Positions 1,654 through 51,637 of a stretch of 52,764 nucleotides of DNA are shown one piece after another. The stretch comes from Atractiella rhizophila (Eukaryota): positions 1 through 52,764 of the forward strand of contig MU271496.1 in assembly GCA_021432655.1 (NCBI GenBank), given 5' to 3'. The translations under genes were made by a program, and so were the position numbers. Within the stretch, counting starts at the first letter, position 1, and every line of letters starts with the position of its first letter. The notes beneath the pieces are model-generated. The model did no database searches. It worked only from the letters and a program-made list of their open reading frames with translations, and was not told the DNA's origin.

Positions 1654-2643
1654 TAAGCTTGGCGACAAGCCTCCTCCAAAGGAGGAGGCTTGCGACGGAG
1701 CCGAAACGGTCGGCTTGACCTTCGGCGAATTTTTGGCACTTTCGACTTCAACTCGACCTACCGTGGTCCCAATGAACAAGAGGGAGAAGTGGTTGGTAGC
1801 GGTAGAAAGAGCTGGCTCTAGACTACTAGGCTGCCATACAGCTAAGGGGGAGAGCGGGTAACGGGGGAGAAATTTCGGTTTGAAATCGGTGTGTCTTCCC
1901 GTGTTTTGGTCAGAATGGGTTACTTCTCCAGTGAAATTCCCGAGCTTTCTGAGACTCTTCCACACCCTACACTGAGATGCTAACACCTTCAACTTCTAGA
2001 CTACTGCGCCGCTATACAGCTAAGGGGGAGAACGGGTAACGTGGGAGGAATTTCAGTTTGAAAGTAGTGAGTGTTCCCATCTTCACATACTATTGTGATG
2101 AGTCCAGGATCTATTCAGGTCTCACCACTTCCAATTCAGGTTTCCGTTTCTTGTTTTGTAGTCCATAACAGCGAAATGAAATACATTTCATTGGCAGAAT
2201 ACTCCCAAAGCGACATTATGTCATAGCAGTGAACCCATTTGCACAAGTGAGCCTGATGAGAAGGTAACTATGGAAATTTCTGCAGCCCTATCACCCACTA
2301 ACAAAGTAGAAGGTGTTAGAATGTCAGTAGGGTGTGGAAGATTCTCAGAAGCTCTGGAATTTCACTAGAGAAGTAACCCCATCCTGACCAAAACACTGGA
2401 CGACACATCAATTTCAAACCGAGATTTCTCTCCCGTTACCCGCTCTCCCCCTTAGTTGTATGGCAGCCTAGTAGTCTAGAGCCAGCTCTTTCTACCGCTA
2501 CCAACCACTTCTCCCTCTTGTTCATTGGGACCACGGTAGGTCGAGTTGAAGTCGAAAGTGCCAAAAATTCGCCGAAGGTCAAGCCGACCGCTTCGGCTCC
2601 GTCGCAAGCCTCCTCCCTTGGAGGAGGCTTGTCGCCAAGCTTA
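1654..2643. mobile_element. Non-autonomous Mutator-like (MULE/foldback) element
   Basis: ~335-bp terminal inverted repeats (1654-1990 / 2309-2643, ends TAAGCTTGGCGAC) flanked by an exact 9-bp direct repeat CTTTCTACA (1645-1653, 2644-2652); no transposase ORF. Confidence 0.85.
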
Positions 2644-4159
2644 CTTTCTACACTTGGACGAGATGACGTGACCCAACCGCCAGCTCCCTTCTCATGGGAT
2701 TATTCCTTTGTTGCAGACAGTAGCGCACATCATCAGGAATTAAATATTTTCGACGGACCGAACTCGCCCTCAGTGTCAACCCTGCCGTGGTGGATTAGCC
2801 ACATTCATAAATTTCATATCCAACTCTCATTTCAGTATCTGTGTAGCCACTGTAGCGTGGATATCGACCCTTGATCTAGGATGAGAGTCATGCCACCGTG
2901 CTGATCTACGGCATGGGTAAATAGAATGGAGCAGATGAAGCAGGGAAAGAACAAAAAAAGATACAGACACCAGTGCGTCCTTTCTTTCGCACTAAACAGG
3001 GATAAGCGTGAAGTAATAATTTGTCAAACAATGTCATCTCCAGGCCTATGTATGGCCCAAAACCTATTGTCCTTGAAAATTCACTTTTTTAGCACAGTAA
3101 GCTGAACCAAGCTGCTCGTGTATTGGGGCTTTCATTGGATAATCAACAAATATCACTGTGTTTTGGTCTCTAACTAACCTCGCTACTACAATCGAGGTGT
3201 AGGGAGACCAACTTGATGCTCGACAGATGTGTCAAGAATGAAAAGGCTTCATTGATAGACCTGTATTGTTTTATATCCTGGTTGGTCAGGCGTACTCGCA
3301 TTTCGGGCCTGTTTTCTTCTTTTGTGAAATTGTGTCAAATTATCTTCGTTGCAGCTCGCGCAATTTAATCAATCCCGAGCCACAGGATTAATCTGTAAGG
3401 CAACGTTGACTTCGAATTCCTTGTTTTCTGTCTGAACAATCGTGTGGTCGTCAGGCTTCCAACGAAACTCTGTCACTGGCAGTTTCACCAGCAACACTGC
3501 TCTTATTCCTGCCTCAATCAGATCGAATCAGACTTGTCACAAATTTTCATTTCCTCTTTCAACGTGGAAGAGGATCAGACGAAGTGCCACAATGTCTGGG
3601 TGTGCTTATTTTACCTGGTTTCCGATGCTGGGATAGAAATAATTCTGCTCACACTACAGTGGGCAGCATAACTGACGGCAAGGAGAGCAGGAGTACAGGT
3701 TTTACAATATGATTGCAATAAGTTGCTGATATGACCTTCCACCAAACATGTTCCAGCGAGGCGCAGTCCTTCAAGTGTTGATCTCGATCAACGGAAGCCT
3801 TCACCGTCCGGACGCCAGTTCAGTGGCAGCCCAAACAGTCGCCTAATCCATCAACTCCCACAAACGGTTCTACGACCCCCATCCTCGCCATTGCGATGTC
3901 TGATCACTTCCCTGAGAATATCGATATGGTCGAAGCTTGCCCATGCGATGATGTGCAGCAAGCTTGCTTTCTCCATCTCTTGTGCTTAACATGGATTCGT
4001 GGGGTTTGGTCCGGCGTATCTTCTCTGGGAATGATGGAGAGGGAGATGGCGCAAGTTGGACAACGCACTGATGCGCCGCAGGCATGACCTGATCTTTTCC
4101 CTCACTTGTCTCGTTTAACATGAATTTGTGGGCTTTAGTCCCGCACATCTTCTCAGGGA

Positions 4160-9800: not shown

Positions 9801-11000
9801 ACCGTCCCGGCGTCTCTCCCGCTCCTTTTTTGACATTCGCCAACTCATTTTGCCTCACTTACCCTCTCACTCCACTTCGCATCCCTCTCCGCCTATGTTC
9901 ACCGTTCATTTCCACCAACCTGTCCGCCTTTTCGCATTCTCGCCTCGTTGGGCTTTCCTCTCTCCCGGAGTGTATTTTCTTTCTCCCTTCCTCTCTCCCT
10001 GATACAAGTGTCCTTAATAACACGCGCACTAGATCCGTTGCGCCCCCCTTTCTGCTAGTCTCAATCCACCTCCTCTCGCACTCCACCGTCCCTCACGCCT
10101 CCACCAAGCCTGTGGAGCGCACCGAAGTCGAATGTGGGCTGAATGTTGGACGTCGCAGAGCGAAAGGGGAAGGAAGAAGTGTCACGAAGCCGACAATCAA
10201 CGTGGGATGTCACAGCGACGCCTCGCATTTTCTTTCCAACTTCTGTTCGCACTCCCGTTCGATCCCTCCTCGCCCATGTTCCATCCCGCTCTCCTACTCT
10301 CTCTCCCACCTCATTCTCCTATCCTCCGTTGCACTCCGGCTCGCATTACATAGATCACCTTCGCCCTACGCTTGCTTCGTGACATCGATGTCAAAAAAGA
10401 GATAGCTGATGGACAAAGAGGAGGGGAATGTGGGCAGTGATGGATCAGGCCACAAGTGGACGTCTAGGTCAGTCCCTCTCGTGCTCCTAAGCCTCTACCA
10501 TCCATCCCTTTAATCTCCCACTACTGACTCAAATGTCATATAACTTCTCGCAAGTGGCCACGTCTGCCTCCTCTGTCATCCTGATTGCTAACTGCCCTCC
10601 ATAATGTCCCAGCCCTATCTAGCCTTGCTCTCACAATCAGATATGGACGAAGCATCAGTATCAGGCGTTCTGCCTAGCGCTTGCAGTGTAATTTAGGTAC
10701 TGGTATTGCAAGGGATTTCAGTTCTTTTGCATATTTTAGGCTTTCCTGTGACATTAGTGCGAGGAAACCAAAGCCTTCAATGTCCGGACGCCGACTTCCA
10801 CCCAACACCATTCGAATTGCAAACGGCCACGTAATCCATAGACTCCCACGAACGGTTATGCGATCTCCATCTTCACGAGTTGGTGATATCTGATTTGCCT
10901 GATCATTGCGCCGAGAACGTCGAGATGGTTCAAGTTGGACAATGCACTGATGAGCTGCAGGCATGATTTGATCTCTCTGCGTTGTCTCGTTTAATGTGCG
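6843..11000 (-). pseudogene. Degenerate multi-exon gene ('gene X') of array unit B, head-to-head with F-box copy B
   Basis: DNA aligns by eye with 41700-46500 and 46850-51500; shared peptides (EFVQAAITAILTKD vs EFVQVPITAVLTKE; ATDLVRVLLRTLV vs ARDLVCMSVRTLV); many stops/frameshifts; boundaries approximate. Confidence 0.45.
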
Positions 11001-12765
11001 TTCGTGGGCTCTAGTCCAGCGTGTTATCTCCCAGAATGAAAGAAAGAAAAACATCGATGTCATGCAAGCATGCAAGGATGATCAGGGGACAGAGTCAATC
11101 GCACTGGCGCATCTCATCACCCCAGTAACATTACTCCATGGCACTCCAATCCACCTCTCCATTCTTCCCTCTTTCCTTTCTCGCCTACCTCCATCACTTC
11201 ACATGCTCCGGATCACATTTCTCTTACCCATTCGATTCTGGATGTTCGGATATGGGCCATCGAAATCATCCTACTTCTCTGTGGCGGGTCTCGAAAATGG
11301 AGTCGAACCCGACGGTGCAGTGATTCTTTGCATCGCGTTGGAGGGGGAAGGCATTATGGTAATTTTTGGGGATACTAAATGTCGTGCATTCTCGGAATTG
11401 GAGCGCCTGTCTCCGGAGCCCTTCACATGCACTTTTCATCTTCCAGATAATCACTCTCAGGTCCTCTTCGAACCCGTTGCCCTGTACTCCTGGAAGAAAC
11501 GGCGTTTCATTCCTCACAGCGAATGGGAGGAATCAACCATCCCATCCACCGGTCTGGGGACGACCATACAACTCTCCCTCTCCACAACTCGACCTACAGG
11601 TATTAGTTTATGCAGTATCACACACCTTCCTACTGAGATCCTCTCACTCATCTTCGAGTTTCTTTCATTCGATGAATCTGACTATCTCGTTTCCTTCAAG
11701 CAACTTTCTGCCGTCTGTCAGCTTTGGAGGGCTGTTTCAGTCCCTTATCTGAATGAAGATGTTTCTGTAAAGGAGAAGCATGCTCGTTTGACAGCTTATC
11801 CTAATGCTGGGCATTTGTGGACATCCCTCTCAGTTGACGATGACATCAGCATTGCGATGGCGAAAGATGTCATCGCTGGTTCGCCGAATGTTACGGAGGT
11901 GGCGATGGATGCATTTTGGAATGAAGAGGAGGCGAAGATTGTGTTGCATGCGATTGAAGGCTTCATGAGGTTGGATGACGTAATGTTTGGAGGGCGAGGT
12001 TTGAGACAGTGGAACAAGGATGAGGTCGAGAATTTTATGTGGAGGATGGGTGACAGGATCAGAAAGTTGCGTGCTGTCGAAGTGGAGGACTCTGCCTCAT
12101 CAACATCACCAGGCCTTCAATTATCATCTGACCTCAAAACCCTAACGCTTCACGCATACCCGCCTCTCCCGTCGCTCTCCCTCCCACTCTCCCTCACGTC
12201 ATTGCGTCTAGACAATCTGTGTCCCCTCCCTCCCTCCGTCTCTGGCTCCTGTCTGCCGCCTCTTCTAGAAGAACTCGAGATCAAGCTCGCTTCCTACTTG
12301 CCTAATGGGAAGATCTCCATCCTACCCATTCCGCTTGAGCTATCACACCTCAAACATCTCACACACCTCGAACTTGATGGAGGTGAGGAAACTTCAAACC
12401 TCATTTCCCCCCAGTTCTTCCACACACTCGCAAATGCAAAAGCAATAGGCTATATAGAGGTTCGGTACTGTGTTGTGGACTGGGAATTCACTCAGTTCGT
12501 ATTCTCAGATTTCATTCGCTGGTTCTTTGGGGACAGAGGGGTGAAGGAGGGGGGAGATGCAGTGGATGTTGCTGACAAGGTGAAGAGGAGGAGAGGACAC
12601 TATTTGGCGGTCGAGCTGTTCTTTGGAGCATGGCCTGAGGAAGAGATATGCATGGCTAGGAGCACCTTGAGAGATTTTGGTGTGAGCGAGGAGGATAAAT
12701 CTACATGTGTTTGGGAGGGTGGGGAGGATGATCCTGGAGGTACTCAGATTTTACTCACGGTCTAG
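10996..12765 (+). CDS. F-box/LRR protein, copy B (first in-frame ATG at 11062; start uncertain)
   Basis: Uninterrupted ORF colinear with copy A over its whole length; same F-box and LRR motifs. Confidence 0.85.
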   Translation: MRSWALVQRVISQNERKKNIDVMQACKDDQGTESIALAHLITPVTLLHGTPIHLSILPSFLSRLPPSLHMLRITFLLPIRFWMFGYGPSKSSYFSVAGLENGVEPDGAVILCIALEGEGIMVIFGDTKCRAFSELERLSPEPFTCTFHLPDNHSQVLFEPVALYSWKKRRFIPHSEWEESTIPSTGLGTTIQLSLSTTRPTGISLCSITHLPTEILSLIFEFLSFDESDYLVSFKQLSAVCQLWRAVSVPYLNEDVSVKEKHARLTAYPNAGHLWTSLSVDDDISIAMAKDVIAGSPNVTEVAMDAFWNEEEAKIVLHAIEGFMRLDDVMFGGRGLRQWNKDEVENFMWRMGDRIRKLRAVEVEDSASSTSPGLQLSSDLKTLTLHAYPPLPSLSLPLSLTSLRLDNLCPLPPSVSGSCLPPLLEELEIKLASYLPNGKISILPIPLELSHLKHLTHLELDGGEETSNLISPQFFHTLANAKAIGYIEVRYCVVDWEFTQFVFSDFIRWFFGDRGVKEGGDAVDVADKVKRRRGHYLAVELFFGAWPEEEICMARSTLRDFGVSEEDKSTCVWEGGEDDPGGTQILLTV

Positions 12766-13775: not shown

Positions 13776-15026
13776 AGCTTTTCCTGTTCGACACAAAAAA
13801 GTGTCTGGCGAAGGAGGAGGAATGAAAACGGACAGCGGTTGAAAGTAAGCGTCGAGCGACGGAGGAGAATTTGTGCGCTCAGAAGTCGAGTGCAGCAGTG
13901 AAAGGATCCGAGGTTGGGGTCGTGAGGGCGTTGTCTGATCACCTGGTGACTGCGACTACTTTTGTTCTGCCTGCAGCGTTGGATGATAGAAACCCGTTCG
14001 CCGTTGCGCCAGTCGCCAAATTTGTAGTGCGCGACGGGAAAGTGCGAATCGATGACAAGGAATTAGATGCGGCGAAATACTGGTACTTCTGGCCAAGGAC
14101 TCGTGAGGCCTATTCTCACACTGCGGTGAACATCAATCTGGGCGAGTTGGAACTCGAATTGGTTATCACGACTCCTCAGGCGAATCTGCGCATTCTTCCC
14201 ACATTGGCAAGCATTGGGACGCAGCGATGTAGCAATTGTACTAGAAAAATTCGTGCGGCACCTATCAAAGCGGCAAAAAAAGAAGGCCAAGGCTGACAAC
14301 GACTCCCAGGTGTGCGACTTCTCTGCTGGGCATGTTGCAACCGCGTTCGGTCAGGCCTGTTCGCGTTGTCACAGTTTGCGAAAAAGGTGTGAGCTTTTTT
14401 GCCTTTGAGATATTTGCGAGAGCTCTCGATGTTAGTCGTAATGTCAACTACATTCCATCCTAAATGCGTCGGCAACGGGAAAAATGCCCATCGGCTTTTG
14501 CTGAGAGCAACTACAAGAACCTATTGGACACCGACGAAGACTCTCCCGCGCATTCGATGCTGAGCGCCGCTCGGTTGTACTCCGAAGCGTTCAGCATGAA
14601 TTTCGCACAAACGATGCTCGCGGCTGCCAGGTTGAATGCACAAGAGGGGGTGGATACTCTTAAGGCCCCCAAGTTGCAAATGGAGTTGTATAAGAAGAGG
14701 CAGGATGATCGTACTGCGGAGGATGGGGCAAGTGAGGGTTCTGTGGTGGAAGGTGTGATCGCCGATGTGACCGGTAGGGTGAGGTTATCCATTTTTCGGC
14801 GACACACCTGACTATGCAGGCTTGTTTAGGTATCGTACGGCATCTAACCCGTCATCAGTTGCAAAAAAGATGTCGCATCGGCGAAATCGAGTTCCGACTT
14901 GGCGACTTAAAACCTTCGTTGGCCCAAGAGGCCTATGACAATTCTAATTATGATGCGTATTCTGTTTCCTTTTCGAGTAGTAGTGATAGCGAGGAATCTG
15001 TCCAGAGTGGTGATTTTGAGCTTTGA
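13776..15026 (+). pseudogene. Degenerate spliced gene with a Cys-cluster (CxxC...C...CxxC...C) motif, antisense to the Gypsy A pol remnant
   Basis: Frame LFLFDTKKCLAKEEE*KRTAVESKRR...QRCSNCTRK; after a frameshift in an A-run continues VCDFSAGH...ACSRCHSLRKRC; further ORFs 14464-14811 and 14814-15026; branch/acceptor CTGAC...GTGCAG at 13761-13775. Confidence 0.5.
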
Positions 15027-15051
15027 AATGTATGTAGTTTGCGTCTCAGTA

Positions 15052-15409
15052 CAGTCATTTGCAAAATTAGTGTCATTTCTCACTCGTCGTCAACTTCATG
15101 CCGGCCACTCCCCGGGTGGCAAATTTACGTCATTGTCGGTGACGGCGTAGATCACGTGCATGCAGCAAATGATTTCTTGGACATTCTGTTTTGAAAGAGA
15201 GCTTAATAGGTAGGAATGTGAACACACATTCTGGGATGCACATTAGAGCGTAGGAATTTGCCTGAAAGACATGTCAAAAGGTGTTTGTTGGACTTGTTGA
15301 GTGTTGACGCATCACCAAAAGCGCCAGCCTGCGTCGCTATGCGATGCGGAAGGCGGCCGGCATGAAGTTGACGACGAGCAACAAACGACACTAATTTTGC
15401 AAATGACTG
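15052..15409. mobile_element. Tc1/mariner-type MITE
   Basis: ~60-bp imperfect TIRs starting CAGTCATTTGCAAAATTAGTGTC; TA on both sides (15050-15051, 15410-15411). Confidence 0.8.
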
Positions 15410-15495
15410 TATCAGCGGCGAATTGCTGGGCGTCGACAAGTGTACACTTTGTCATGGTGGCATCAGGGATTGTGGTGAGTGGGGACCCTTGGCAA

Positions 15496-15565
15496 AGTGG
15501 GTGAAGTAAGACTCACACTCCCCTGTCTAGAGTGGGTGAAGTAAGACTCACACTCCCCTGTCTAG
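15496..15565. repeat. Perfect 35-bp tandem duplication
   Basis: AGTGGGTGAAGTAAGACTCACACTCCCCTGTCTAG at 15496-15530 and 15531-15565. Confidence 0.95.
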
Positions 15566-15825
15566 TGGAGGACCCTCAGGCGTTCCTCCCACTAGCTAGC
15601 CAAGCTTATTTTGGAGCTCGCAACCAAATAGGCCTGGCCCACGCGCTCGTGGACACAACGCGCAGTATAACCGGTCGGCGGTTTGTGTGCTCGTCGCCGG
15701 TCTATCGTCTTTGTGACGTAATGTGTTGTTGAGCGAACAAGGACGTGTAAACCAAAAAAGCAAAAGCAAAAATGGCATAGAATAACATCAAAACAGAGTG
15801 TAAGGTGAAGGGGAGTCGTTGTGCA

Positions 15826-16270
15826 CCTCGCAATTGAGGGATTTTTTGAAATTTGACCGGTGTTATTTTGGTGCAATACGCAACCGTCCGGTGAAAACGG
15901 GCGGGACAACTCACCAACAAACCGGTCTCCGATCTGTCCGTTGAGGAACAGACCGGCGCCTCACTTAGACCTATGTTCAACAATGTGACTAAGGATTCAC
16001 CCAGCGAGGCGTACAGAGGAGTAGGTCCTCCTAAAGTGAGGGGGAGGGGACCTCGCGATTGAGGGCAATTTTTGTAAATGCGACATTGGTGATGGTGTGA
16101 GAACGCAATGAGCATTCGTCTTTGACAGGCGATGAATGGACTCACCAATGACCAAGTCGCCGACCTGCCCATTGAGGAGCAAGTCGGCGCCTTGCCTTGA
16201 CCTAAGTATCAAAGACTAGGATTTCACCCGGCAAGGCATATAGGGGTGTTGGACCCCTTAAAGTGAGGAA
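15826..16270 (-). repeat. Two diverged ~225-bp tandem repeats with conserved predicted secondary structure (candidate structured RNA)
   Basis: Units ~15826-16050 and ~16051-16270 share anchors (CCTCGC.ATTGAGGG, ACTCACCAA, TAAAGTGAGG) and keep several stems through compensatory changes. Confidence 0.75.
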
Positions 16271-16743
16271 GACCCTCCAGCGCGTTTTCGTCGAAGGTTA
16301 CGAGAACACGCATTTGGGCGATTTTTTGCGGAGTTCGGTATGGAATCGGGACGAACTGCGAGAGGGTGTGCAGTGTGATAGTCTTTTATAGCATCCTGTG
16401 AATTTTCCAGATCTGCGATGCTGATCCACTTGTCCTCAGATGGTGAATACCCTTTGTACCGAACGTGATATTTGAAAACTCTATCACGGGTACCAAACCA
16501 TTTTCCATGAACAATTTTTTCCACTTCCCACTCTTTAATTCCGTTCACCAATTCTGGAGGTGGTTTGGGCAACTGGACTCTGCCAGGGATGTCGTCTTTG
16601 TTGACTTTTCGTATTAGGCCCACATGGAACACTGGATGTATCTTCCATGAGGATGGTAATTCGAGTTTAAGGTTGAGGGGACCCAAAACTTGCAAAACGC
16701 GAAAGGGGCCATGCCATTTGTCGTCCAACTTTTTGACAGGTCT
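16258..16743 (-). mobile_element. Gypsy element A remnant: integrase C-terminus (GPF motif) and chromodomain
   Basis: KKLDDKWHGPFRV...IHPVFHV and WEVEKIV...YHVRYKGYSPSEDKW; cut at 16743 by LTR B. Confidence 0.92.
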
Positions 16744-17199
16744 TGTAAAGGTTAGACGGTTTTACAACTAGACTTTACAAAGTATATGTCCTTTGATCTC
16801 TTTCACACTAGGTTTAAACAACAATCCTTTCGTAAGCTAGGCACAAGACGTGACGTCGTTGGTTGTCGGTAATCCTTATGTTATTCCGAAGATGTACTAT
16901 AAGATGAAATGTATACAAGAGGTTTGAAGGGTTGGTTGCGGAGGTGTTGATCCAGTCTCTGGAATGTGCTGAAGGAGTAGAGTCGTTGGAATGTCTGGAA
17001 TCCTTACTCGTTTGAGCTCCTTTTATGTGGTTATGGAATTGTTCCAGAATATTCCAGATACTCTAAGTGATGGCAGTTAAGGTTATTCAGAAAATATTCT
17101 AGACTGTTCTACCATATTCCAGAGTAATGTTCTAGGCTGTTCTAAGAGGTTCCAGAAGGTTCCAGTATCTCCTATAATGAATGTGGCCTAACCATTACA
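16744..17199 (-). mobile_element. 3' LTR of Gypsy element B
   Basis: TG...CA ends with imperfect terminal inverted repeat (TGTAAAGGTTAGAC / TGTAATGGTTAGGC); polypurine tract immediately 5' on the minus strand. Confidence 0.85.
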
Positions 17200-17200
17200 A

Positions 17201-17213
17201 CTTCCCCCTCCTT
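17201..17213 (-). other. Polypurine tract of Gypsy element B
   Basis: AAGGAGGGGGAAG on the minus strand, 1 nt before the LTR's TG. Confidence 0.85.
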
Positions 17214-17439
17214 GAAAGGAAGGCTTGTCCTCAAGCCTTGTTTAGAAAGAACCTATAGGGAACATGGCACTTTACTATCTTCTTTCATGAACAGTGTTCG
17301 ATTGTTCTTATTGATCTAGTGCCTTTGTATCATACAAGTTCTTTGCTTGAGAAATACAAATACAAGGGGTTCTCTTAGCCTAGCAATATAAGTACAAGTT
17401 GTTCGCTATATTCTTTAGAAAGAGATAGAAATTTTCCGA

Positions 17440-18549
17440 CATTTAGTGTCTGGCAGCATCAAAAGCCTTCAAAAACTTCCTAGTAGCTTTCATAGCTACA
17501 AGTAGTTTCCTACAAGCAGGTTGCCTGTGTAAGTCCTCGAGGGTTAGGCAATAGACAGGTCTTCCAATTGGGTGGTATCTTCCTGTCTCCGGATCACAGT
17601 TGAGAACTCTAAGATCTTCCAACCATTGGGTTCCGAGGTGTCAATCTTGCACATCATGATGCGATAAATGAGCGAGGCTTTGGTGAAGGCAGGGCTGAAG
17701 TCTCTCAGACTGGCTTATTCGACTTGGATGGGTGCTCGCCAAGGAAGAGGAGGAGAAGGAGGTTGACCATTGGGGATGATTCCGTAATACCCTCCTTGAA
17801 GGCTTCCAGGGCCGAAAGAGCAAATTTCTGTGGTAGCAAACATCTTGGCTGGGCTCTTCTTTGGAGGCCGATAAGCTGCAACATCTTGCAAACCAGTAGA
17901 CATGGTCTCCAAGGAGGGAAGGGTGATCGAGCTAGCCGTGTCGAAGATAGCGTCTTCAATGTCCGAAGTTGAAGCATCAGGTCTGAGCGATTGTGCAACA
18001 GCAACCGATTCGAGTTCATCGATTACTTCGATCGAAGGTGGAGATTGATTATTTGCACCCACGTTGGTTCTCTCCACCTGATTGTCACGTTGAGGGCGCT
18101 TAAAAGCAATCATTAATCAATGTTGCTACTTTGTGTAACAAGACTTATACAAGGGATCGGCCTAGTGAATTACTAAAGAACCATCCATCTACCTTCTCAA
18201 TATACTGATCCCAAGACCAGAAATCGACGATGTCAGGGTACATGGTGACAATAGTTCGTCCAGCGAGATATTTGTGGAAATCCGCAAGGTGGCAATAGGT
18301 ACCGCCGGGCGTCCATCAAATATAGATATCGTTACAGGAGTCCTCCAACATCCCAAGAAAGATGATTCTGTCATACAGTAAGCGTCTTATCATAATTATG
18401 AATTAAGCCTACTTTTCAAGATGCATAGGTATTTCCAGGCAATATTGCACAAAGCTATGGTGCTTCCAAACTTCGTGGAGTTCGAGGATATGAGGGTGCA
18501 TGTCGTGTTCAGTGATAGGGTCGTAAGAATCATCTTGATAGTGAGCCAT
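17440..18549 (-). pseudogene. Spliced accessory gene between pol and 3' LTR of Gypsy B (degenerate)
   Basis: ATG at 18549 (MAHYQDDSYDP...); phase-compatible GT-AG introns 18412-18368 and 18192-18099 join three exons in frame; one in-frame TGA in exon 2; 3' end uncertain. Confidence 0.55.
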
Positions 18550-19708: not shown

Positions 19709-22700
19709 CTACTGCAAGTAAGGTTCCCCCACATGTTTTCCATCAACCTTGGGTGTGAGTAAAGGCTTCTTTTTCGCAATTTCTAAGGTAACATTGGCAT
19801 TATTATATCTGTTTCCAGAATAGGAAGTTCCAGGAAAGGCAAGTGTGCTGCGTTCGAATCCCAGTTGTGGATGCTTTTTTACTTGGAAGGGACGAGGCAT
19901 CTCACCATTAATAGAGGAAATGTAGACACTTTGGTAAGGGTACAATGGCCCTGTAGATGTGTATTGAACATCAGCCTTTGAAGTGTTATAGTTGGAATTG
20001 GGTTTAAGGGTTCGCTCATAATCTGTAACAGCATTTGGAGCATTTTTGAGGTTATCCAGAGTCTCCCAGGTCCATTCATGTTCAGGATAGCCTTTCCAGT
20101 CTACTAGATACTCTACTTTGTTTCTACGCACCCGTTTATTCAGTATTTTATTGACTTCGTACTCATCTTCATCATTAATGTCGAAGGGTGGTGGTTCTTG
20201 TTCCTCACGCCCTTTGAACTCTTCAGGGCTTTCTAACCATGGTTCTAAGTATTCCGTATTAACGATAGGGAGTATCTTTATGTTGGCTGGAAAGTCAATA
20301 AGACAAGAGTTTGAATAGACGTCCACAATTTCAAATGGTCCGATAAATCGTGGTCGAAGTTTCTTGCTCGTCCTGTCTGAGAAGAAATCGGCATTCAAGT
20401 TTTCAGTTGAAACTTTCACTAAGTCTCCTTCTTTGAACGCATGCAAACGTCGAGTAGGTTCCTTGTACTTGGCTTGTTGAAGTGAAGCGAGCTTAAGGCT
20501 TTCATGAGCAGCCAGAAGGTCAAGGTCAAGCTTTTCAATAAACTCTTCGGTAGAGGCTACTGTAATATCTGGTACCTGTAATCACTCCGGTGTGATAGGA
20601 TGAAAACCAGTGTCGAGTTCGAAAGGTGTTCGCCCAGTTGAGGCATGTACCGCATTGTTATACGCAAACTCGAGAGAAGGAAGAAGTTGGGCCCAATTGT
20701 CCTGTGCGTAGTTGATGTAGTGACGGAGTGCTTCTTTTAACACTCGCACTTGTCGTTCCGATTGTCCATCCATTTGAGGATGAAAGGCAGTTGAGAGGTT
20801 AAGCTTAGTATTGAAGGTCTGAAAGAGTGTTTTCCAAAACTGTGATGTGAATTTCGGGTCTCGGTCAGAGATGATGATCCTAAGGAGTCCATAAAGCCTA
20901 ACAATCTCTTTGAAAAATAGTTTTGCTAATGCCATTGCATCAATAGTTGTAAATGTAGGAATGAAGTGTGTTCGTTTGGAGAGTTTATCAACCACGATGA
21001 GCACAGGATCGTATTGTTCATGTCCAGATGCTGGAAGACCAACTGCGAAGTCCAGTGTTACCGTGTGCTATCTTGATGGTGGTATCCGTAAGGGTCTGAA
21101 AGATCCAATGGGTTTTTTATTTACAGCTTTATTTCTCTGGCAGCTCGGACAGGACTCAACATATCTTCTGACATCTTTTGTAAGGTTCTTCCAGTAGTAT
21201 GACTGAGAAACCAAAGCCACTGTCTTTGCGTAGCCAAAATGACCAGATGTTTCTGAATCATGTAATTCCTAATAATTTGAAGTTTAAGTGCTTTGAGGTC
21301 TGGAATACATAGTACCCAGTTATCTGTTACTTCATTTTTGTTATAAAGAAGTCCGCCAAGTAAACAGAAAAAACGAGAGAAGGTGGTGGGTTATCGCTTT
21401 GTAGTGCACTGATGATGTCTGCAAAAAATGCATCCTCCATATACCCCCTCCTTATTTTGTCGAGCTGCTCCGGATCCGCTTCTACAGTAGTGATGTTGTA
21501 TACCTCAGCATCATACTCTGAAGCAGGGAGAGGAGCACGAGATAAGGGGTCAACATTAGAGTGAATACGTCCTGCTTTACGGACTATGCGCATCTTCTCT
21601 CTATACGGTTGTAAATCCAGAGACCATCGCGTTAATCGTTTGTTACCTCCAGAGTAATCAAGTATCCACTGGAGTGCAGAGTGATCTGTGATCACTGTAA
21701 TTTCACATCCTTCGATGACTGGTGTGAGTTTCCTTAATCCCCACATAATCACAAGACACTCAAGTTTAGATGTGGTGTAGTTTTTCTCAGCTGAGGTAAG
21801 CTCTCAAGAGAGATACATGATAGGGTGTTCTTTCCCTTCCACATCTTTCTGAGCAAGAATAACACCTAGTCCGATAGTTGACACATCAGTATAAATAATG
21901 AACGGCTGGCTATAGTCTGGATGAGCAAGTACTGGTGCAGAACTAAGGACCTGAAGCAACTTTTCGAAAGAATGTTGACATTCTTCTGTCCACCTGAAGT
22001 CAGTCTCCTTTTTGAGTAGTTTTGTGATAGGAGCACACAGTTTTGCACAGTTTTCAATGAACTTGCGATAATATGCAATCATGCCCAGGAAACGTTGTAC
22101 TTCTTTTACCGTCTTGGGAGGAGGGAAACTCAGTATAGCTTCAACATTCTTCTTGTCCTTCATGATGCCTAGGTTTGAAATATTATGACCAAGGGCTTTG
22201 ATGTTGTGATAAAACAGGTGCGACTTGCTGAGCGATAATGTAAGTCCACTTGCAATGATCGTTTGAAGAACTGCTTCGTTGTGTGTTAAATGATCTTGAA
22301 ATGTTTTTGAATAGATGACAATGTCATCAATGTAAATAAGAGCATACTTCCACTTATGTTGTGCAAGTATCCTGTCCATGCCCCGCTGGAACACTGCCGG
22401 TCCGTTTTTAACACCTAGTGGCATTCGTTTGAAGTGATACAGCCCTTTATGCGTCCTAAAAGCTATTTTTCTCTATCTTCTTGATGTACAATCGGTATCT
22501 GATGGAAGCCTTTCATTGCATCATGGTTTGAGAACCATGACATGCCAGAAAACTGCCCAAGGATATCATCAATCCGTGGTAAAGGGTATTGATCTGCTTT
22601 CGTGATAGCGTTGTGTTTTCGATAGTCTTTCACAAAGTGTAGCTTTCCACCGGAAAATGTAATAACAACCGGAGCTGCCCATGCAGATACGGATTCTTCA

Positions 22701-23095
22701 ATAATATCTGCTTCAAGAAACTCAGCAGTTACTTGCTCTATAAACTCTCTGCCCGCTGGTGATGCTCTGTAGGGAGGCAAAGAGATAGGATGACTATCTC
22801 CTGTGTTGATAACGAAATTAGCATCTTGCATCTCTCCACAGAATAGAGAGCCATAAGTAAATGCTTTCCTATTGCGAATTATCATGCGTTGCACCGCTTT
22901 CCTTTGCTCAGATGTTAGCTCTGAGTTGATGTCAAGCTGCTTTAACGCCTCAAGAAAAACCTTCAAGTCTTCTTGTTGAGATAGTGTCTCATTAACACCA
23001 ACGTTTGCTTCAGCCTTTTTAGCTGGGATAATATCTCCTTGTATCTCTCCATGTTGAAAAGATAGATCGCTGCTTGAGAGGTTTATTGTTATCCT
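19709..23095 (-). mobile_element. Gypsy element B pol (RT, RNase H, integrase, chromodomain), 5'-truncated and degenerate
   Basis: YPLPRIDD, MPLGVKNGPAVFQ, YIDD (RT); TDVSTIGLG, TDHSAL (RNase H); HHCC zinc finger, SDRDPKF, HPQMDGQSER (integrase); GPF and EYEVNKIL...YLVDWKGY (chromodomain); stops and frameshifts. Confidence 0.96.
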
Positions 23096-23667
23096 TTTGA
23101 GAAAACGTGAGGGACACCCACAAACGCCCGGCATGAGGATAGGCTTTCAAATGAACATGCCTCTCCTTCATAGAAATATTGGCATTCAAATAAGGGACTG
23201 AAACAGTCTTCAAGAGCTGACAGAAAGCAGAAAGCTGCTGGAAGCAAACGAGATGTTCATCAGGCACATCTTCAATGAATCCTTCGCCTTGACTGAGTGA
23301 AAGGAAGTTGCAGATGAGAGAGAGGATCTCGGCGGGTAGCTGTTCAATAGGGCATGGACCAATCGCTAGAGTTCGAGTTGGGGAGAGCGAACGTTGGATG
23401 GTGATTCCTTGATCGGTGGATGGAATGGTTGTTCCTGTCTATATGGGAACGGAACAATCAATGTCTCCGGAGGTTTCGAAGATGGCCTGAGATGCATCAT
23501 GTGGGAGGTAAACCATGCACGTTAAGTGGTCATCCCATACATCATGTTTGGCACCTTCAAAAGTTACTGGAATCCTTTCCTCCTCCAAAGTGATGCAAAG
23601 GTTTACTGCACCGTCGGCTTCAACTTCATTTTCAAGGCCTTCCAGAGAAAATAGGATGATTTCAATA
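23095..23667 (-). pseudogene. Inverted, more diverged N-terminal fragment of the F-box/LRR family
   Basis: FSLEGLENEVEADGAVNLCITLEEE...IEQLPAEILSLICNFL...QQLSAFCQLLKTVSVPYL...MKERHVHLKAYPHAG; one in-frame stop; truncated at both ends. Confidence 0.85.
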
Positions 23668-24049: not shown

Positions 24050-27000
24050 TCTTAGTGTTCGAAATTCTAGCAAGTCCTATGTAAAGTTGTCCATGTGTAA
24101 AAACTGGTGTGTCCAAATACAATCCAACAGTCTTCACTGACTGGTCTTGTGACTTGTTGATGGTGAGACAGAAAGCTAATTTGACAGGGACCGGCGTAAG
24201 GTAAACCGGAATGAATTGGAGACCTTGCTATCCAATGTGATGCACAGGATGAGGACTGAGCTGCCTGTGAATTTGCTTGTAATGAGGGTAGCCTCAATGA
24301 TATGGGGACACTAGCTGGGTGATGATCAACCATGTACCATTACAGAGCCTAGCCAAAGGATTGAGGTTTCATGTTAGGATGATAGGGACTCCAACTTTGA
24401 GATGAAGATGATGAAGAGGGAAACTGATCATATTGAGAGTATGAAGAGAGAAATGTCAGGCTTGCCCCTACGCATTACCGAAATGCACCATCTGAAGTCA
24501 CGTGACCCACTTTACCATGCCATAGGACCACGCGCCTGCCCATCGCCGCTTTGCTCACGTTCTCGCTGATCGCCGCCTTCCCCTGTCTCACACGAATCGC
24601 CGCTCAGCAAACCTTATACATTTCGCCGGTCTGCACCGTCTCCATTATTGCTTTATTGTCCTTTCTCACTTGTACTGCTCAGTATGTCTTATTTCCGAGT
24701 TTTCCTTTTATTGCTTTCCTGATCTAGCTATCTTACATGTTTCAAGAAACTTATGATACAGTTTATGGCAGTGCTTTTACATATGTATATATACATCGAG
24801 ATGTAGTGGTGGTGACCTCAGAGTATTCTCTTAGGTTTACCTCCACTACAGACGCATCGCCTATCGGCGACCGCACATAGTGTTAGCCCTAACAAGAAAC
24901 CGATCATATTGAGAGTATTAAGGTATTCAACTGTGAAGCCTTGTTGAATGTTCTCACTGTTGCCCATCAATTGGTCAGCATTAAGGTAGATTTGTTCCTG
25001 TCAGGAGACAAATTGTCAAATAAGCTGATTGTTTATCATGTCAACATCAACATCCAGGCCATAAGGACCATGCGCTCTTGACAGTATCCTCAACTCGACT
25101 GGGTTGACATCTTGCGTTACGGTGCTCAGTGCAGGGGAGATGTCAGTCAGGAGACTGTCCAGATCATGGGATCGCCAGACTACTGTTTGGTCCTTCATAG
25201 TCAATGGGCCATGGCCACAGTCTTCCGGGTTGTCAGTTGCACCATTACCAACTGACAACAACTATTCAGCAAAGCCAGAGATAATAACAAAGTCTTGGCT
25301 AGTCATTTCAGCCTGATGGAGGAGTAGGTACATATTCACTATAAGAGGGAGGACTCAAACTGCTAGCCAAAGGGACTGTTGATGACACATGCGTTGACGA
25401 TCTGCGCACATGAAGTTTGGGAATGACTGAGAGGCATTGTCACATGTCACCTAATTATTTATTAGACATGAACTCTTGACTTAATGTACTTACCACTAAG
25501 AACGAAAATAACTCCACCGAAGGCATGTATATCACATACCTGCAAGACAATGCTAAGTGGAAATCCTGAGAGAACAAACTAGGTGTCTCAGGGACATTGC
25601 TCTTGCCTATGTACATAAACGGCTGCACAGCTACAAACAATAACTCTAACCCTATCTGAGATATGGCACAAAGGTCATGTGATATGTAGGGCAAAAGAGA
25701 TGTAGAAACAGAAATGCAAAAAGCAACACAAACATGAATTGAACCCACAATACCAAATAGGCCAAAAAATAGGGGATCTAGAGGTGATCCTGACACACCA
25801 TCGATGACTCATTCCCACTTCGTCCCAATTCTCAATTGACAAAGTCGACCATGATCACTTTGAGTTGTAACACCATAGACAGAATCAGCATCAATGTCCA
25901 ATGGGATACAGAAACAAGTATAGGACGTTTGTCCTCCTTCTAACAGAACATCAGCAATACCGGAAGAGCTCACTCCCAGTGCAATTTTCCCCACTGAATA
26001 CACTCTGGCGAGCAATAGGTCTTTTAATAAAAGTCTTTCCAATCCCTCCTGGCCCATCTATAAAAAATAATCCACTATTTGCATTTTGCCATGCTTCTAC
26101 AACCATGTCATCGGCATGATTTGGTCCAGATTCAATAATGGTAACTCTGTCTGAATATGTGCCTGAAGGAGTAGTTGATTATACAAGTTCTTCTCCAATA
26201 ATCTTTGTCTCACCTCCCATCTTTCTAGTCACTCTGCTGGTTATGGTAGTCCAAAGTCACTTTGGGATTTACCCTGAGCCTGGAGGAGATCTTCAGTTCA
26301 AGACCACAGAGGCTGATAATTTGCTTGTCCGTTGGATTGTCTACACCATATTTTGTCTGTAGAAGGTGTTTGCAATCATTACTAAGTTGCTCATAATGGC
26401 TGTTCCATAATCTTCTGGGTTCGCTGGTGAAGCCGAATAGCAGGATGTAGACAAACAGAGATTGCATCGTAAAAGCCATTCTTGACCATACTGGCTTCAT
26501 TGAGACAATAATCCCATTCTTCGTCACTTTCTAACAGCCAAAGAGCCACACATGTAACCTTGAAAGTCTCTTAGACAAAGGTCTCTACTGTTCGGATATC
26601 CTCAAAAGATTTCGTATTGGCGACCTGATGGAGAAGCATTCGGAGATATAACTTCCCTTGTGACAGCACCACATAATAGATACAGCCAATAGCTTCTCAT
26701 GTCTCCCTGATTTTCCAAGTAAGTGAGCCTGATTCCAGGTAGGGAATTGAGGAGCCTTAGGAGAGGTAAGGTCTTCAGTAATGTTGGAGTTCCCAACAGT
26801 AGGTGAAGAATTGTATCAAATAAGCACTGCCTTAAATGTCAGATGAACATCTCCTATCCAGTTCTTGAGGGAAAAAATGCTGGCCCCTCAACATTTGGAG
26901 GACGGAGAGCTTGATAAAGCAATGTATGAACTTGTCCAGGGTCTGGAAATAATTGGTCATGAAAACAAGGAACTGGAAACTGAGAACTGAATGGAACTCA

Positions 27001-28381: not shown

Positions 28382-31300
28382 TCAAGAATATACAACTTGC
28401 CTCACTGTCAATGCCTCTTGTGGAGGAGTTACATTTTCTTCCCTTACATTCGCTGCCCATCTGATTGCCTCCAGCAAATTGTCACAAGCGTCAAGATCTG
28501 AATCTGCACAGAATGGTGCATAAAGCTGGCGTGCACACATGATTTCTTCCCTGGCATCAGAGTACTTTGACAGGTTGAAGAGGAGTAGGGCCAATGTCTC
28601 TCTGCTGCGAGCTTCGTAGTACCCGCCAACTGTCTTACTCAATTTGACCATTTCCTCATAAACTTCAATCGCCTTCGTGAACTGGCGGTCTTGAACATGA
28701 AAGGAACCTATTTTGGCAAGGCACATGAGTTGACCTCCCATGTCTTCCACGACCAAACAGCGCTCTTTCGCTTCTTCTAATTGTTTCATTGCTTCATTGT
28801 TCCACTCGTCACGTTGGATCTCTCCCATGCCGCAAATGCAATGTGCCAGGCCTTTTTGATCTTCCACCATCAGATACAGCTTCTTTGCCTCCTCAAATCG
28901 GCTTAGTGCTTTTTCTACCCGCCCACGACGCAACTCGATCTCCCCCATGCCGCAAATGCAGTGAGCCTGGCCCCGTTGGTCTTTCACTACCAGATACAGC
29001 CACTTCGCCTCCTCGAAGTGTTTCAGTGCTTCCTCTATCCTATTGCGACTCTGTTTGATCTGCCCCATGCTGTGAATGCAGTGGGCCAGGCCACGCAGAT
29101 CTTCCTCCAGAACATAGAAGTGTCTTGCCTTCTCGAATTGTTTCAAGGCTTCCTCATTCCTCCCATGAAGCCGCTCGATCTCCCCCATCAGGAAACTGCA
29201 GTGGGCCAGGTCTCGCTGATCTTCCACAAGAACATATAGCACCTTCGCCTCCCGGAATAGCTTCATTGCCTCTTTGTTCCGCCCGCGACTGAGCTCGATC
29301 TGTCCCATGCTGCGAATGCAGTGGGCCAGCCCTCGCTGATCTTCCATAATCAGATACAGCTTCTTTGCCTCTTCAAATAGTTTCAGTGCTTCTTTGTTCC
29401 GCCCACGACCCCGCTCAATCTCTCCCATGCTGTGATTGCAGTGTGCCAGACCTCGCTGATCCTCCACCAGCAGATAAAGCTTCTTCGCCTCCTCCAATCG
29501 TTTCAGCGCCGCCCCGTTCTGCCCACCGCCTTGGTCAATCTCTCCGATACCACGAATGCAGTGAGCCAAGCCTTGCTGATCTTTCACCATCATATACAAC
29601 TTCTTTGCCTCTTCAAATCGTTTCAATGCTTCCTCTATCCTCCCGCGACCGAGCTCATTCTGCCCTATGCTCAGGATGCAGCGGGCCTGGCCTCGCTGAT
29701 CTTCTGTGAGCAGATATAGCTGTTTTGCTTCCTCAAAGTGCATCACGGCCCTCCGTGGGTTTCCCTTCTGGTGGAAAGCTAACCCAAGAGCCAGCGTTAA
29801 AGTGGCTGCAATTGGTGGAAATGAAATAGATCCTTTGGAAGACAAAGCAGACCGGATCAATGCTATTGAGAGAAGACTTTGAAGATACAGAAAGTTCCAC
29901 GTTTCTGCTAGGAAAATGAAGGCGATTGTTGTGTCTTCCAGGTATTGAAAAGCAGCTAGAAGCACATATTCAAGATTTCGATAGTTATTGCGAAATGAGA
30001 TCAGTCCAATCCGCTCTCCTCTATCTTGGAATCGACGAACATTTTTACGGGCCTTCTGAATGAGACCTTCGGTCAATGGCCGAAGGGACAAAGCGGCAAC
30101 TTTAAAATGTGTATCACGGCGCAAGACCAAGCAATTGATATGTTCGCGAATTGGTGCAAGCATGCGCAATCGTGTGGAGTTTGTAAGAGCATCCATGACA
30201 TCTTCAGCAAGCCCAACGGCTAAGATTGAGGTGATGAGTACGGAAGACTGTCTTGGTTGATAGGGACAAGAGTTATCCCCCAGAGTTATAACGTCGTTAG
30301 CACCAAGACCGTCAGGAGCCCACGATAGGAGGGCAAGGATAAAAGCGCTAAGATCAGCATGTTTTCTGAGAAGAGGTGAATCAAGTGAAAATGATATCGA
30401 GGTCGCAAGAGTGCGTGTCTCGTCACTGTCTTCGTTCCACAGAAGGCTGGTCTTCTTTGTCTCCCACTCCTCAACCAAAACTGCAAGCCGCTTAGTTGAC
30501 TCTGCATTGGCACGAAGAATAAACAGTTTGATGGACAAGGCATGGTGATCCAGCTTGGTAGCTATCATTTTCACCACCTTCTCTTGGTCTGAGCAATCTC
30601 TTCCTCCAGCAATGTACATATTCCCGAACATCTCGACCACGGCAACATCGCTCAAACGTTGAATCATTAGGTCTTGAAATCTCACGCCTGTCGAATTCAC
30701 ACGTTCGACCTGATGCCCACGATGTACTGCGACAAGGATGGAGCCAGAGCGGCAATTTTTGGAAAGGAGGGATTGAAAAAATGGCTGCAGCTTATTCGTG
30801 TCCGATCGTGCGGGCGTCTCAAAATTATCCAAGATGAGGAGGCACTTGTGAGTTCTGAAATATCGTCCTATGACTATAAGGTCATCTTCTCCAGGTTGAG
30901 GAGACAATCCAAAAACTTCCTTGCAAAGGTAGGCGCAGAGCGATGAGAAGTCGGAGAAAGCGTCACATCGACCCCAAAAACGAAAGTCTTCTTCCTTTTC
31001 ACCTTTCACAGTCGTGAATTCTCTCTTGATTTCGTCTGCATGCAGGACTTCTAGTGCGACCGTAGATTTGCCGTTACCAGCGCCGCCGATGATGGCAAGG
31101 TGCCTCTGATCGGTGATGATGGAGTGGATCGCTTTCTGAACCTCCTCTTCTCTTCCATAACAAGCGCCGGGAGGAGGTAGTGGACTCTTCATGTACACTG
31201 CAACACGGTCGTTGCAAGCTGACAAGCAGAAAGTGAGCAGGCAATCACAAATGACCAGGAATATACGTTTCACCAATGATTGGGCAGCAGGGAGTACTTC

Positions 31301-32602: not shown

Positions 32603-32818
32603 TGCCTAAAGCAAAAGATAGTAGATGAAATCGATGTTCAGTGGACGCGAAGGACACCGAAGTAATGTAGGTCAGAAATCTGGGTTAGTTATAACAAGTA
32701 GGAAAGAAGGGAAGAATCACAGTCCCGAACCCGCCTATTATTATTCCTTCGCGACGGAACTGTTCCGTCTGTGAGAGCATGAGCTCTCTGGTTCACTCGG
32801 TCCCCTTCCATTCTACAC

Positions 32819-39172: not shown

Positions 39173-39677
39173 CTGTCTGCCTCCTCTTCTAGAATATCTC
39201 AAGATCAAGCTCGCCTCCTACTCGTCTGATGGAAAGACCTCCATCCTACCCACTCCGCTCGACCTATCACACCTCAAACATCTCACCAGACTCTACCTCG
39301 ACGGTGGTGAGGAAACTTCCAACCTTGTTTCCCCACAGTTCCTCCACACCCTCAGAAATGCAAAAGCGATAGATACCATAGATGTTCGGTACTGTGTGGT
39401 GGACTGGCAATTCACAGGGTTTGTATTCTCAGACTTCATCTGCTGGTTCTTTGGAGACAGGGGGATGAAGGAGGAGGTGGATATGGTGGATGAAGCTGAA
39501 ACGATGGAAATGACGAGAGGACGTGTGTTTCGTGTTAAGCATTTCTTTGGAGGGTGGCTTGAGGAGGAGATATACACAGCCAGGGGCAGATTGAGACAGT
39601 TTGGCGTGAGTGAGGAGGATGAAGATACGTGGGTTCGGGAGGGTGGGGAAAGTGATGAGGGAGATACTCAGATTTGA
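39173..39677 (+). pseudogene. F-box/LRR copy C, C-terminal third only
   Basis: CLPPLLEYLKIKLAS...LDLSHLKHLTRLYLDGGEETSNL...; fused directly to Gypsy C sequence; 3' flank also matches copies A and B. Confidence 0.9.
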
Positions 39678-46500: not shown

Positions 46501-46531
46501 TTTAACATGAATTCATGGGCGATAGTCCAGC

Positions 46532-46844
46532 ATGTCTTCTCCAGGAACGACCGGGAAGGAAACACTGGTCTCACAGAAGGATGATCAGGGAACAGAGTCA
46601 AGCGCACTGGTCCATCTCATTACCCCAGTAACGTTAGGACATGACACTCCGATCCACCTCTCCATCCTTCCCTCTTTCCTTTCTCGCCTACCTCCATCAG
46701 TTCACATGCTCCGGATCGCATTTGTCTTGCCTCTGGAATTCAGGAGCAAATCTTATGGGCCGTCGAAATCATCCTACTTCTCTCTGGAAGGTCTCGAAAA
46801 TGGAGTCGAACCCGACGGTGCAGTGTCTCTTTGCATCGCGTTGG
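46532..46844 (+). pseudogene. F-box/LRR copy D, N-terminal ~100 codons
   Basis: KDDQGTES..LVHLITPVTL...GLENGVEPDGAVSLCIAL then an abrupt switch to unit E sequence. Confidence 0.9.
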
Positions 46845-46849
46845 CACGC

Positions 46850-51500: not shown

Positions 51501-51548
51501 AGCTTGTTATCTCCAAGAATGAAAAGAAGAAAAACATCGATTTCATGC

Positions 51549-51637
51549 AAGGATGATCAGGGGACAGAGTCCATCTCACTGGTCCATCTCATTACCCCAG
51601 TAACGGTAGAACATGGCACTCCGATCCATCTCTCCAT
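51549..51637 (+). pseudogene. F-box/LRR copy E, interrupted by LTR retrotransposon insertion
   Basis: KDDQGTESISLVHLITPVTVEHGTPIHLSI, then the TG of the LTR at 51638. Confidence 0.85.

Follow-up and report, generated by a model that had tools for sequence, protein, structure and literature searches.

Cis-acting RNA signals have been well charted in retroviruses and hardly at all in the LTR retrotransposons of fungi. A locus in which two diverged copies of a multi-hairpin sequence follow one another from the stop codon of a Ty3/Gypsy pol gene onward raises the question of whether such a signal is at work in a fungal element. A preliminary description of the locus proposed a selected cis-acting RNA that serves packaging, export, evasion of nonsense-mediated decay (NMD) or self-cleavage. 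The hairpins, the forces that may have kept them and their possible role are considered here from the window (the whole stretch of DNA analysed, 52.8 kb in length), from public DNA contigs of the same family and from distant relatives of the element.

The window is repeat-rich and fungal in character. An intronless Patatin-NACHT-TPR gene of 1407 aa occupies 28382-32605 on the minus strand, and families of F-box-like ORFs are also present. Ty3/Gypsy remains belong to at least two elements, and a second, different Gypsy pol, which is frameshifted, lies at 19709-23146. The element considered here is read from the minus strand, and two of its features frame the motif:

16258-16761, minus strand: 3' fragment of a Ty3/Gypsy chromovirus pol, with the C-terminal SH3-like domain of integrase and a chromodomain (ORF, Pfam)
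15496-15565, minus strand: candidate polypurine tract (AGACAGGGGAG) and then TG, within a perfect 35-nt x 2 tandem; possible start of the 3' LTR (tandem repeat and sequence)

The pol frame comprises 167 codons and ends with the stop codon TAA at 16258-16260. It matches the Pfam models SH3_Tf2-1 (4e-13) and Chromo (1.1e-08), and the combination of a Tf2-type SH3 domain with a chromodomain identifies it as the C-terminal end of a chromovirus integrase. Its last ~30 codons are without counterpart in relatives, whose frames end shortly past the chromodomain. The family copy in the window is truncated at 16743/16744 and constitutes a 3' fragment only, since family contigs extend beyond 16743 with letters unlike the window and other contigs match the far side only; the 5' end of the element is absent from the window. 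The 3' LTR may begin at 15496-15565, the second LTR copy being absent from the window as well, in which case the motif would lie within a 3'UTR of ~700 nt. Read-through of the pol stop was rejected, the frame being closed after 13 codons.

Behind the pol stop on the minus strand lie two tandem units of ~227 nt each, which in the sense order are unit 2 followed by unit 1:

16043-16275, minus strand: unit 2, consisting of a leader that includes the pol stop codon, the hairpins P2-P6 and a linker of 8 nt (alignment, fold, covariance model R1)
15826-16042, minus strand: unit 1, laid out as unit 2, with TAG at 16031-16033 in the position of the pol TAA of unit 2 (alignment, fold, covariance model R1)

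Both the two copies of ~225 bp and the correspondence of the two stop codons had been recognized in the preliminary description, and both hold. The unit cores are 72.2% identical over 133 nt (blastn of the region against the window, E 7.7e-14) and the unit ends ~83% identical over 29-30 nt; no further copies were found by blastn in the 52.8-kb window. Of the 136 aligned core positions, 41 are not the same in the two units; 27 of these differences are transitions, and the changes fall on 18 of 78 paired positions versus 23 of 58 unpaired ones. An Infernal-type model, also proposed in the preliminary description, was built from the two cores (R1) and recovers unit 1 at 163.3 bits and unit 2 at 161.4 bits as its only matches in the window. 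The best-supported reading is that an old tandem duplication doubled the module and that both units were retained. A protein-coding interpretation of the units was rejected: Pfam gives nothing for an overlapping frame of 168 aa, three does not divide the unit length evenly, and codon periodicity is absent from the differences (17/12/12 over the three phases).

Full-length folds resolve each unit into a row of five hairpins, P2 to P6:

16242-16258, minus strand: P2 of unit 2, a 6-bp hairpin (alignment positions 15-20 paired with 26-31)
16015-16031, minus strand: P2 of unit 1 (alignment)
16188-16238, minus strand: P3 of unit 2, with a 9-bp outer helix, an internal loop (GGGUGAA) that is conserved, and a 2+6-bp inner helix (helices 3-5)
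15957-16011, minus strand: P3 of unit 1 (alignment)
16160-16187, minus strand: P4 of unit 2, an 11-bp hairpin with the conserved loop CUCAAY (helix 6)
15929-15956, minus strand: P4 of unit 1 (alignment)
16082-16158, minus strand: P5 of unit 2, an irregular hairpin of ~75 nt (folds, z -1.9)
15855-15927, minus strand: P5 of unit 1 (folds, z -2.9)
16051-16064, minus strand: P6 of unit 2, a mini-hairpin CCUC-6 nt-GAGG behind an A-rich spacer (folds)
15826-15839, minus strand: P6 of unit 1 (folds)

P2, whose first paired base in unit 2 is the final A of the pol stop codon, differs between the units by two two-sided changes and one one-sided change, with no pair broken. P3 shows two two-sided and three one-sided changes, again with none broken, and a 4-nt indel is restricted to its terminal loop. 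P4 is changed at 4 of its 11 pairs, two of them on both sides and two on one side, and all pairs are kept; the letter found in the family majority at 16165 adds a third two-sided change. The base helix of P5, compared by the minimum free energy fold of each copy and an index-wise alignment of the 5' arm, has two-sided changes at positions 4, 5 and 7 (C-G to U-A, G-C to U-A and U-A to G-C). The pairs of P6 are invariant, and this hairpin is thus without support from covariation. Unpaired blocks that are invariant in both units comprise CCUCACUUUA in the leader, the internal loop of P3, the loop of P4 and the P6 end.

Most stems of the preliminary description exist as written. AGGAG/CTCCT and its counterpart AGGGGT/ACCCCT form P2, and CGCCTCACT/AGCGAGGCG with its counterpart GCCTTGCC/GGCAAGGC forms the outer part of P3. 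Of the third stem, GCCGAC/GTCGGC corresponds to P4 of copy 2, but CCGGTCT had been given the wrong partner in copy 1: AGACCGG serves as 5' arm in the hairpin that follows, P5, and the homologue of the P4 arm of copy 2 is the adjacent AGATCGG-type arm, with which an 11-bp hairpin forms in both units. CTCAC and GTGAG, proposed to enclose a four-way junction, do occur in both copies. Such a junction would be possible, yet a row of five hairpins reads better and the junction is not favoured, as the closing helix CUCAC/GUGAG is invariant and is outcompeted in full-length folds, where its 3' strand overlaps the second helix UGGUG/CACCA of the covarying P5, which occupies the bases that GTGAG would need. 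RNAalifold recovers CUCAC/GUGAG only if the alignment ends before the 3' arm of P5.

In the deep covariation comparison, which consists of the two units of one element from which the structure itself was derived, all 39 modelled pairs form in both units with six two-sided changes and six one-sided changes, and no pair is lost. When the 3' partners are shifted by 1-3 columns, 33-45% remain paired. Neutral placement of the 41 differences breaks 12.3-12.5 pairs on average and never fewer than 2; among 200,000 runs started from each unit, none kept every pair. RNAalifold was refitted to 500 mutated pairs, since the structure derives from the very two sequences tested. The real pair reaches -53.0 kcal/mol, against -23.3 +/- 5.3 kcal/mol for the mutated pairs (best, -41.3), and 0 of 500 are as low. 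In the same refitted control 5 of 500 mutated pairs reach 40 common pairs, and double changes counted by themselves do not attain significance, six being reached by 28 of 500. A shuffle that can only swap the two rows gives 11 of 500.

Each unit also folds better than its shuffled controls, a comparison on which the preliminary description had staked its proposal. Unit 1 folds at -77.1 kcal/mol (z -3.8) and unit 2 at -84.4 kcal/mol (z -5.0), with 0 of 200 shuffles as good in either case, and a 561-nt region around them yields z -5.0. By composition-corrected energy, windows over the motif rank 2nd, 4th and 5th of 1402 across the 52.8 kb, and a few other places are equally strong.

The pairs also carry information about the strand. 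The eight wobble cells are without exception G-U when read on the minus strand, the element's sense strand, and none is A-C; one U-G pair is common to both units. The A/C mismatch at 15963/16005 becomes G-U on the minus strand, as stated in the preliminary description. Folding is good on the plus strand too (z -2.6 and -4.1), and the assignment to the sense strand therefore relies on the wobbles and on the direction in which pol is read, not on fold energy.

As the main alternative to a selected RNA, the units could stem from a neutral tandem duplication in a Gypsy 3'UTR, with hairpins that are quasi-palindromes of the DNA, kept by template switch or gene conversion, and an RNA devoid of function. 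Template switching, as an excerpt of PMC8794818 has it, makes and maintains hairpins and leaves apparent compensatory substitutions in perfect stems, a likeness to the motif that extends to two P4 changes lying adjacent to each other, as from one switch event; the plus strand, moreover, folds nearly as well as the minus strand. Tandem repeats are likewise familiar at this position. Plant Ty3/gypsy elements of the Ogre type carry tandem arrays between pol and the 3' LTR, described in the excerpted part of PMC7004042 as a source of satellites, and among 68 distant metagenomic relatives two (L042 and L078) have tandem repeats right behind pol, much as the window has two units and possible partial ones.

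Several details of the motif speak against such a neutral history. The changes are spread over four separate hairpins, so that several independent events would be needed, and the wobbles are all G-U on the sense strand, one of them kept in both units, whereas template switching would yield perfect complements. Unpaired blocks, namely the P4 loop and the leader, are conserved while the stems change. Template switching would account for the origin of the changes and not for a function, and predicts neither the conserved loops nor the sense-strand G-U pairs of the window. The tandem units of L042 are 85-99% alike and unstructured (z +1.0 and +0.6); those of the window, two copies in the contigs listed, are ~30% diverged with every stem kept. 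A neutral duplication is accordingly considered an unlikely explanation, if one to be taken seriously.

Selection on the RNA is the probable reason that the stems were kept. The proposal of a selected cis-acting RNA thus stands in so far as the hairpins persisted through ~30% divergence by pair-keeping changes, with G-U pairs on the sense strand and a layout found family-wide; packaging, export and evasion of NMD are not told apart.

That the layout belongs to the family is apparent from public sequence data. Six public runs match part of the stretch, none of them recorded as RNA, and four, consisting of DNA contigs (X1, X3, X4 and X5), were compared at 80% likeness. X1, which may be the source sample, places 326 contigs on the stretch at very high summed depth, indicating that the family is abundant there; the others come from three different studies, of which X3, a soil metagenome, contributes six contigs, X5, a metagenome, three, and X4, a second organism, three. 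Contigs bridge pol and unit 2 in X4 (16107-16403), X5 (16203-16386) and X1 (16235-16452), and unit 1 and unit 2 in X3 (15966-16265) and X1 (15931-16245); the value for X1 contigs running on into unlike sequence is just 0.01. It follows that the succession pol, unit 2, unit 1 characterizes the family and did not come about by a MITE insertion. A joint that skips one unit does not occur among the three joints listed. The ordinary MITE or foldback family that the preliminary description had held out as a contrary outcome was looked for and no match was found; this reading was rejected on the strength of the bridged order and the low run-on, together with the lack of further copies in the window. 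Elsewhere, at 15050-15411, there is a genuine MITE-like pair of inverted repeats of 72 nt.

At the best-supported 40 of 281 variant sites, viewed together with 20 of 341 contig pieces, most contigs carry a letter other than that of the window. At 15963, 15992, 16031, 16165 and 15865 the majority letter replaces a G-U pair of the window by a Watson-Crick pair, and that at 16133 restores a pair broken in the window. The majority letter at 16031 also converts the TAG of unit 1 to TAA, and that at 16171 makes the P4 loops of the two units identical. With majority letters, the core shows seven two-sided and two one-sided changes. The split of window-specific stem changes into five wobbles versus one broken pair is not significant. 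Because the family contigs lie near one consensus, they add almost no independent covariation at these best-supported 40 of 281 sites.

Duplicated enhancers are common in the U3 region of retroviruses. Units located in the U3 of the 3' LTR could by the same token be enhancers or protein-binding repeats duplicated at the DNA level, and in the window the start of the LTR is a candidate only. The interval from the pol stop to unit 2, however, contains no polypurine tract followed by TG, the best candidate being that at 15496-15565, and the summed contig depth over the units is about that over pol and not higher, by a rough measure. Pair-keeping changes and a wobble bias towards the sense strand are, moreover, unexpected of DNA binding sites. 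A role in U3 is considered highly improbable.

Outside the family, the searches revealed no counterpart of the motif. Nor did they reveal any protein closely related to the C-terminus of pol: of seven of similar length, the best reaches 47% identity at good coverage, and four longer ones reach at most 35%. A scan with a four-sequence pol alignment gave 80 metagenomic chromovirus loci of 34-46% pol identity. Model R1, searched over the window and these loci (407,889 bases), found no motif in any of the 80, a side match in L033 (9.7 bits, E 9.5) being noise, and blastn of the 3' region of the window against them returned chance words of 15-30 nt only. A pattern scan based on the loops gave 0 matches in metagenome contigs and 0 in viral contigs. 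Its sole match in genome contigs, in a Pirellulales MAG (L081), is without a match to R1 and was taken as chance. Pattern scans and R1 over the 80 loci thus yield no diverged homologue outside the family, and the module, if functional, is confined to the lineage of the window element.

Structure behind the stop codon is not a general property of the relatives either. Among the 51 of 56 eligible loci whose post-stop regions were folded, mean z over the first 225 nt is -0.33 and over the following 225 nt -0.82, with values below -3 in 1 of 51 and 4 of 51, respectively, versus 0 of 51 coding controls. A cluster of 13 loci lacks a common fold, its consensus reaching just -5.9 kcal/mol.

Known RNA families offer no match. 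Rfam cmscan over 14500-17500 on both strands, at E up to 10, returned three noise matches of 13-19 bits, where gathering scores are 50-60. A tRNA-like or SINE-derived module was rejected, with 0 tRNA or tmRNA found by ARAGORN in the window and no small-RNA match in Rfam, and readings of GGGUGAAUCC and UGGUGAG as a primer binding site or tRNA-like element were dropped, since neither sequence is kept from one unit to the other and both ARAGORN and Rfam give no match. A long-range pairing of the unit 1 leader with 15555-15574 (20 nt, 75% complementary) was judged to be chance.

Each unit might also be a new self-cleaving ribozyme, and a compact multi-hairpin fold with conserved unpaired blocks would be compatible with a catalytic core, the one point in favour of this idea. 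The Rfam ribozymes (hammerhead, HDV-like, twister, twister-sister, hairpin, pistol, hatchet and VS) give no match at E up to 10, in agreement with the preliminary description, in which no hammerhead or HDV core was recognized. Cleavage of the genomic RNA upstream of the 3' LTR would presumably cost it R and the poly(A) tail, a loss that is difficult to reconcile with replication. A ribozyme is scarcely credible here.

The role of the motif is more readily approached through the parts of its structure that are held constant. All 39 pairs persist at ~30% divergence and present unpaired nucleotides that are themselves conserved, in the leader, the P3 internal loop and the P4 loop. Conserved unpaired blocks on covarying stems suggest recognition by a protein, and the position of the module, from the stop codon onward and ahead of the candidate polypurine tract as in simple retroviruses, suggests the analogy with export or stability elements. 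The motif may accordingly be an RNA module under selection, read from the sense strand within a fungal Ty3/Gypsy chromovirus 3'UTR and working in the manner of the retroviral direct repeats (DR) and constitutive transport element (CTE), a reading given an even chance of being right. Under this reading, a module beginning at the pol stop codon would have been doubled by the old tandem duplication, and the conserved loops displayed on covarying stems would be putative binding sites for a protein of the host or of the element. The bound protein would decide the post-transcriptional fate of the unspliced genomic RNA, either through export and cytoplasmic accumulation or through stability despite a long 3'UTR. 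The specific assignment to RNA export or stability is, taken on its own, tentative and somewhat doubtful.

A selected RNA module could also act in the packaging or dimerisation of genomic RNA, or in reverse transcription, be it strand transfer or the context of plus-strand priming. The structural evidence is common to this reading and to that of export or stability, and each unit contains CCUCA three times and G(U/C)GAGG-type complements twice, which would allow alternative or intermolecular pairings. The direct repeats of Rous sarcoma virus (RSV) have been reported to affect packaging (excerpt of PMC3856414). Against such a role, none of P2-P6 has a self-complementary loop of the kissing-dimer kind, and the candidate polypurine tract lies ~280 nt further downstream. 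Packaging or a part in reverse transcription is held to be distinctly unlikely.

The retroviral systems behind the preferred reading, a DR- or CTE-like 3'UTR module, resemble the motif only in part. The CTE is situated between the last gene and the 3' LTR, and its binding loop is internally duplicated. Both the CTE and the window motif are structured cis elements of simple retroelements. The CTE, however, is one extended stem with two internal loops, in contrast to five hairpins repeated in tandem, and it shares no sequence similarity with the window motif. In Mason-Pfizer monkey virus, the CTE recruits the host export receptor TAP/NXF1 for unspliced RNA, according to an excerpt of PMC3856414; binding of the fungal homologue Mex67 to the window motif would be putative only.

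The RSV DR are two repeats of 115 nt that show conservation across avian retroviruses and are reported to affect cytoplasmic accumulation and RNA stability in addition to packaging (excerpt of PMC3856414). As cis-acting repeats they occupy the 3' part of the genomic RNA of a retroelement, and the window motif likewise comes in two copies of the 3' region with a conserved structure. The DR differ in flanking src and being non-adjacent, whereas the window units are in tandem, and they have no relation to the window motif in sequence or by covariance model; the host of the window motif is a fungus, and its function is predicted by analogy. There is no Rfam match of any kind to suggest homology with CTE or DR, and Rfam may hold no models of either. 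The motif thus appears to resemble known retroelement 3' RNA elements in kind, to belong to none of them and to be confined to one family. No such motif was found described for fungal chromoviruses in the literature, which is weak evidence of absence.

A broader proposal draws on L055, the metagenomic relative of highest identity (46%) and the single strong case among the post-stop regions, in which a multi-hairpin fold encloses the stop codon (z -4.2). This fold shares no sequence with the window motif and has no relatives among the 80 loci. The window motif might represent a kind of 3'UTR RNA module so far undescribed in retrotransposons, one that would correspond in fungi to the CTE, DR and RSE of retroviruses, with L055 as a second, independently evolved example. 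Loops of the CCUCA type, displayed on hairpins, would then attract a host factor, either in the nucleus or where the ribosome terminates, whereby unspliced genomic RNA with a long 3'UTR would be exported and escape NMD. This proposal is speculative and considered unlikely.

A module of ~225 nt at the pol stop, present as two diverged copies in a very abundant family, offers a testable handle on the export, stabilisation or packaging of unspliced RNA in fungi, and could find use as a portable RNA element in fungal expression constructs. Should the motif prove neutral, it would illustrate cleanly how mutation alone can maintain hairpins in nature.

Two weak look-alikes flank the units. Inside the pol tail, at 16309-16328, an A-rich spacer is followed by a sequence resembling P6 (85% over 20 nt by blastn, E 2.9, not significant), and a second candidate lies at the opposite end:

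15796-15825, minus strand: possible remnant of a third leader, just past unit 1 (read by eye)

As look-alikes of a unit end and of a leader, respectively, they suggest that the array may once have been longer.

Among the metagenomic loci that were recovered as distant chromovirus relatives by alignment of the pol C-terminus, the one with the highest pol identity (L055, 46%) carries its stop codon within a multi-hairpin fold at 579-830, which is closed by a GAGGA/UCCUC helix and has a z of -4.2 relative to shuffled sequence. This fold has no sequence in common with the window's motif, the two tandem multi-hairpin units behind the Gypsy pol stop. Another group of these relatives (L009, L011, L017, and 10 related loci), viewed over the 450 nt that follow the matched frame, displays a conserved TATAAAAG at the stop, followed by an ATG approximately 50 nt further on. 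Variation in the stretch after this ATG is mostly found at every third position, and the whole arrangement suggests a further coding frame directly downstream of the matched one.

Several other features accompany the motif in the window:

15050-15121 and 15340-15411, inverted repeat with two 72-nt arms, 85% complementary
15496-15565, perfect tandem repeat of 35 nt x 2, polypurine-like on the minus strand
16743/16744, junction of two repeat families, marked by contig divergence from the window
19709-23146, minus strand, second Gypsy chromovirus pol, split over several frames
24454-24753 and 51638-51937, direct repeat of 300 nt, 100% identity
28382-32605, minus strand, unbroken Patatin-NACHT-TPR frame of 1407 aa
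4139-5878, 10972-12765, 39048-39677, and 46493-51637, ORF family of several copies, 80-90% similar

Read on the minus strand, the 35-nt tandem repeat presents a polypurine-like run (AGACAGGGGAG) and then TG, and may thus constitute a duplicated polypurine tract and LTR start belonging to the same element as the motif. Just past this candidate LTR start lies the inverted repeat, whose arms are separated by 218 nt and whose appearance is that of a foldback element or MITE. At the 16743/16744 junction, alignment shows public contigs of the Gypsy family parting from the window sequence, and the contigs of the AT-rich sequence across the junction likewise part from it there. The second pol, encoding RT, RNase H, integrase, SH3, and chromodomain, is unrelated to the Gypsy element carrying the motif.

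The copies of the direct repeat are 27 kb apart. They could be the two LTRs of one large nested element, or they could have arisen by recent duplication. The Patatin-NACHT-TPR frame is of the fungal NLR type, and its TPR part corresponds to a 120-nt periodic DNA array (7 copies, 28817-29749). One member of the ORF family contains an F-box-like domain.

A scan of the window also identified two stretches, 2551-2775 (minus strand) and 1501-1725, with composition-corrected fold strength at least equal to that of the motif. Both are situated near 89-nt repeats at 1817-2083.
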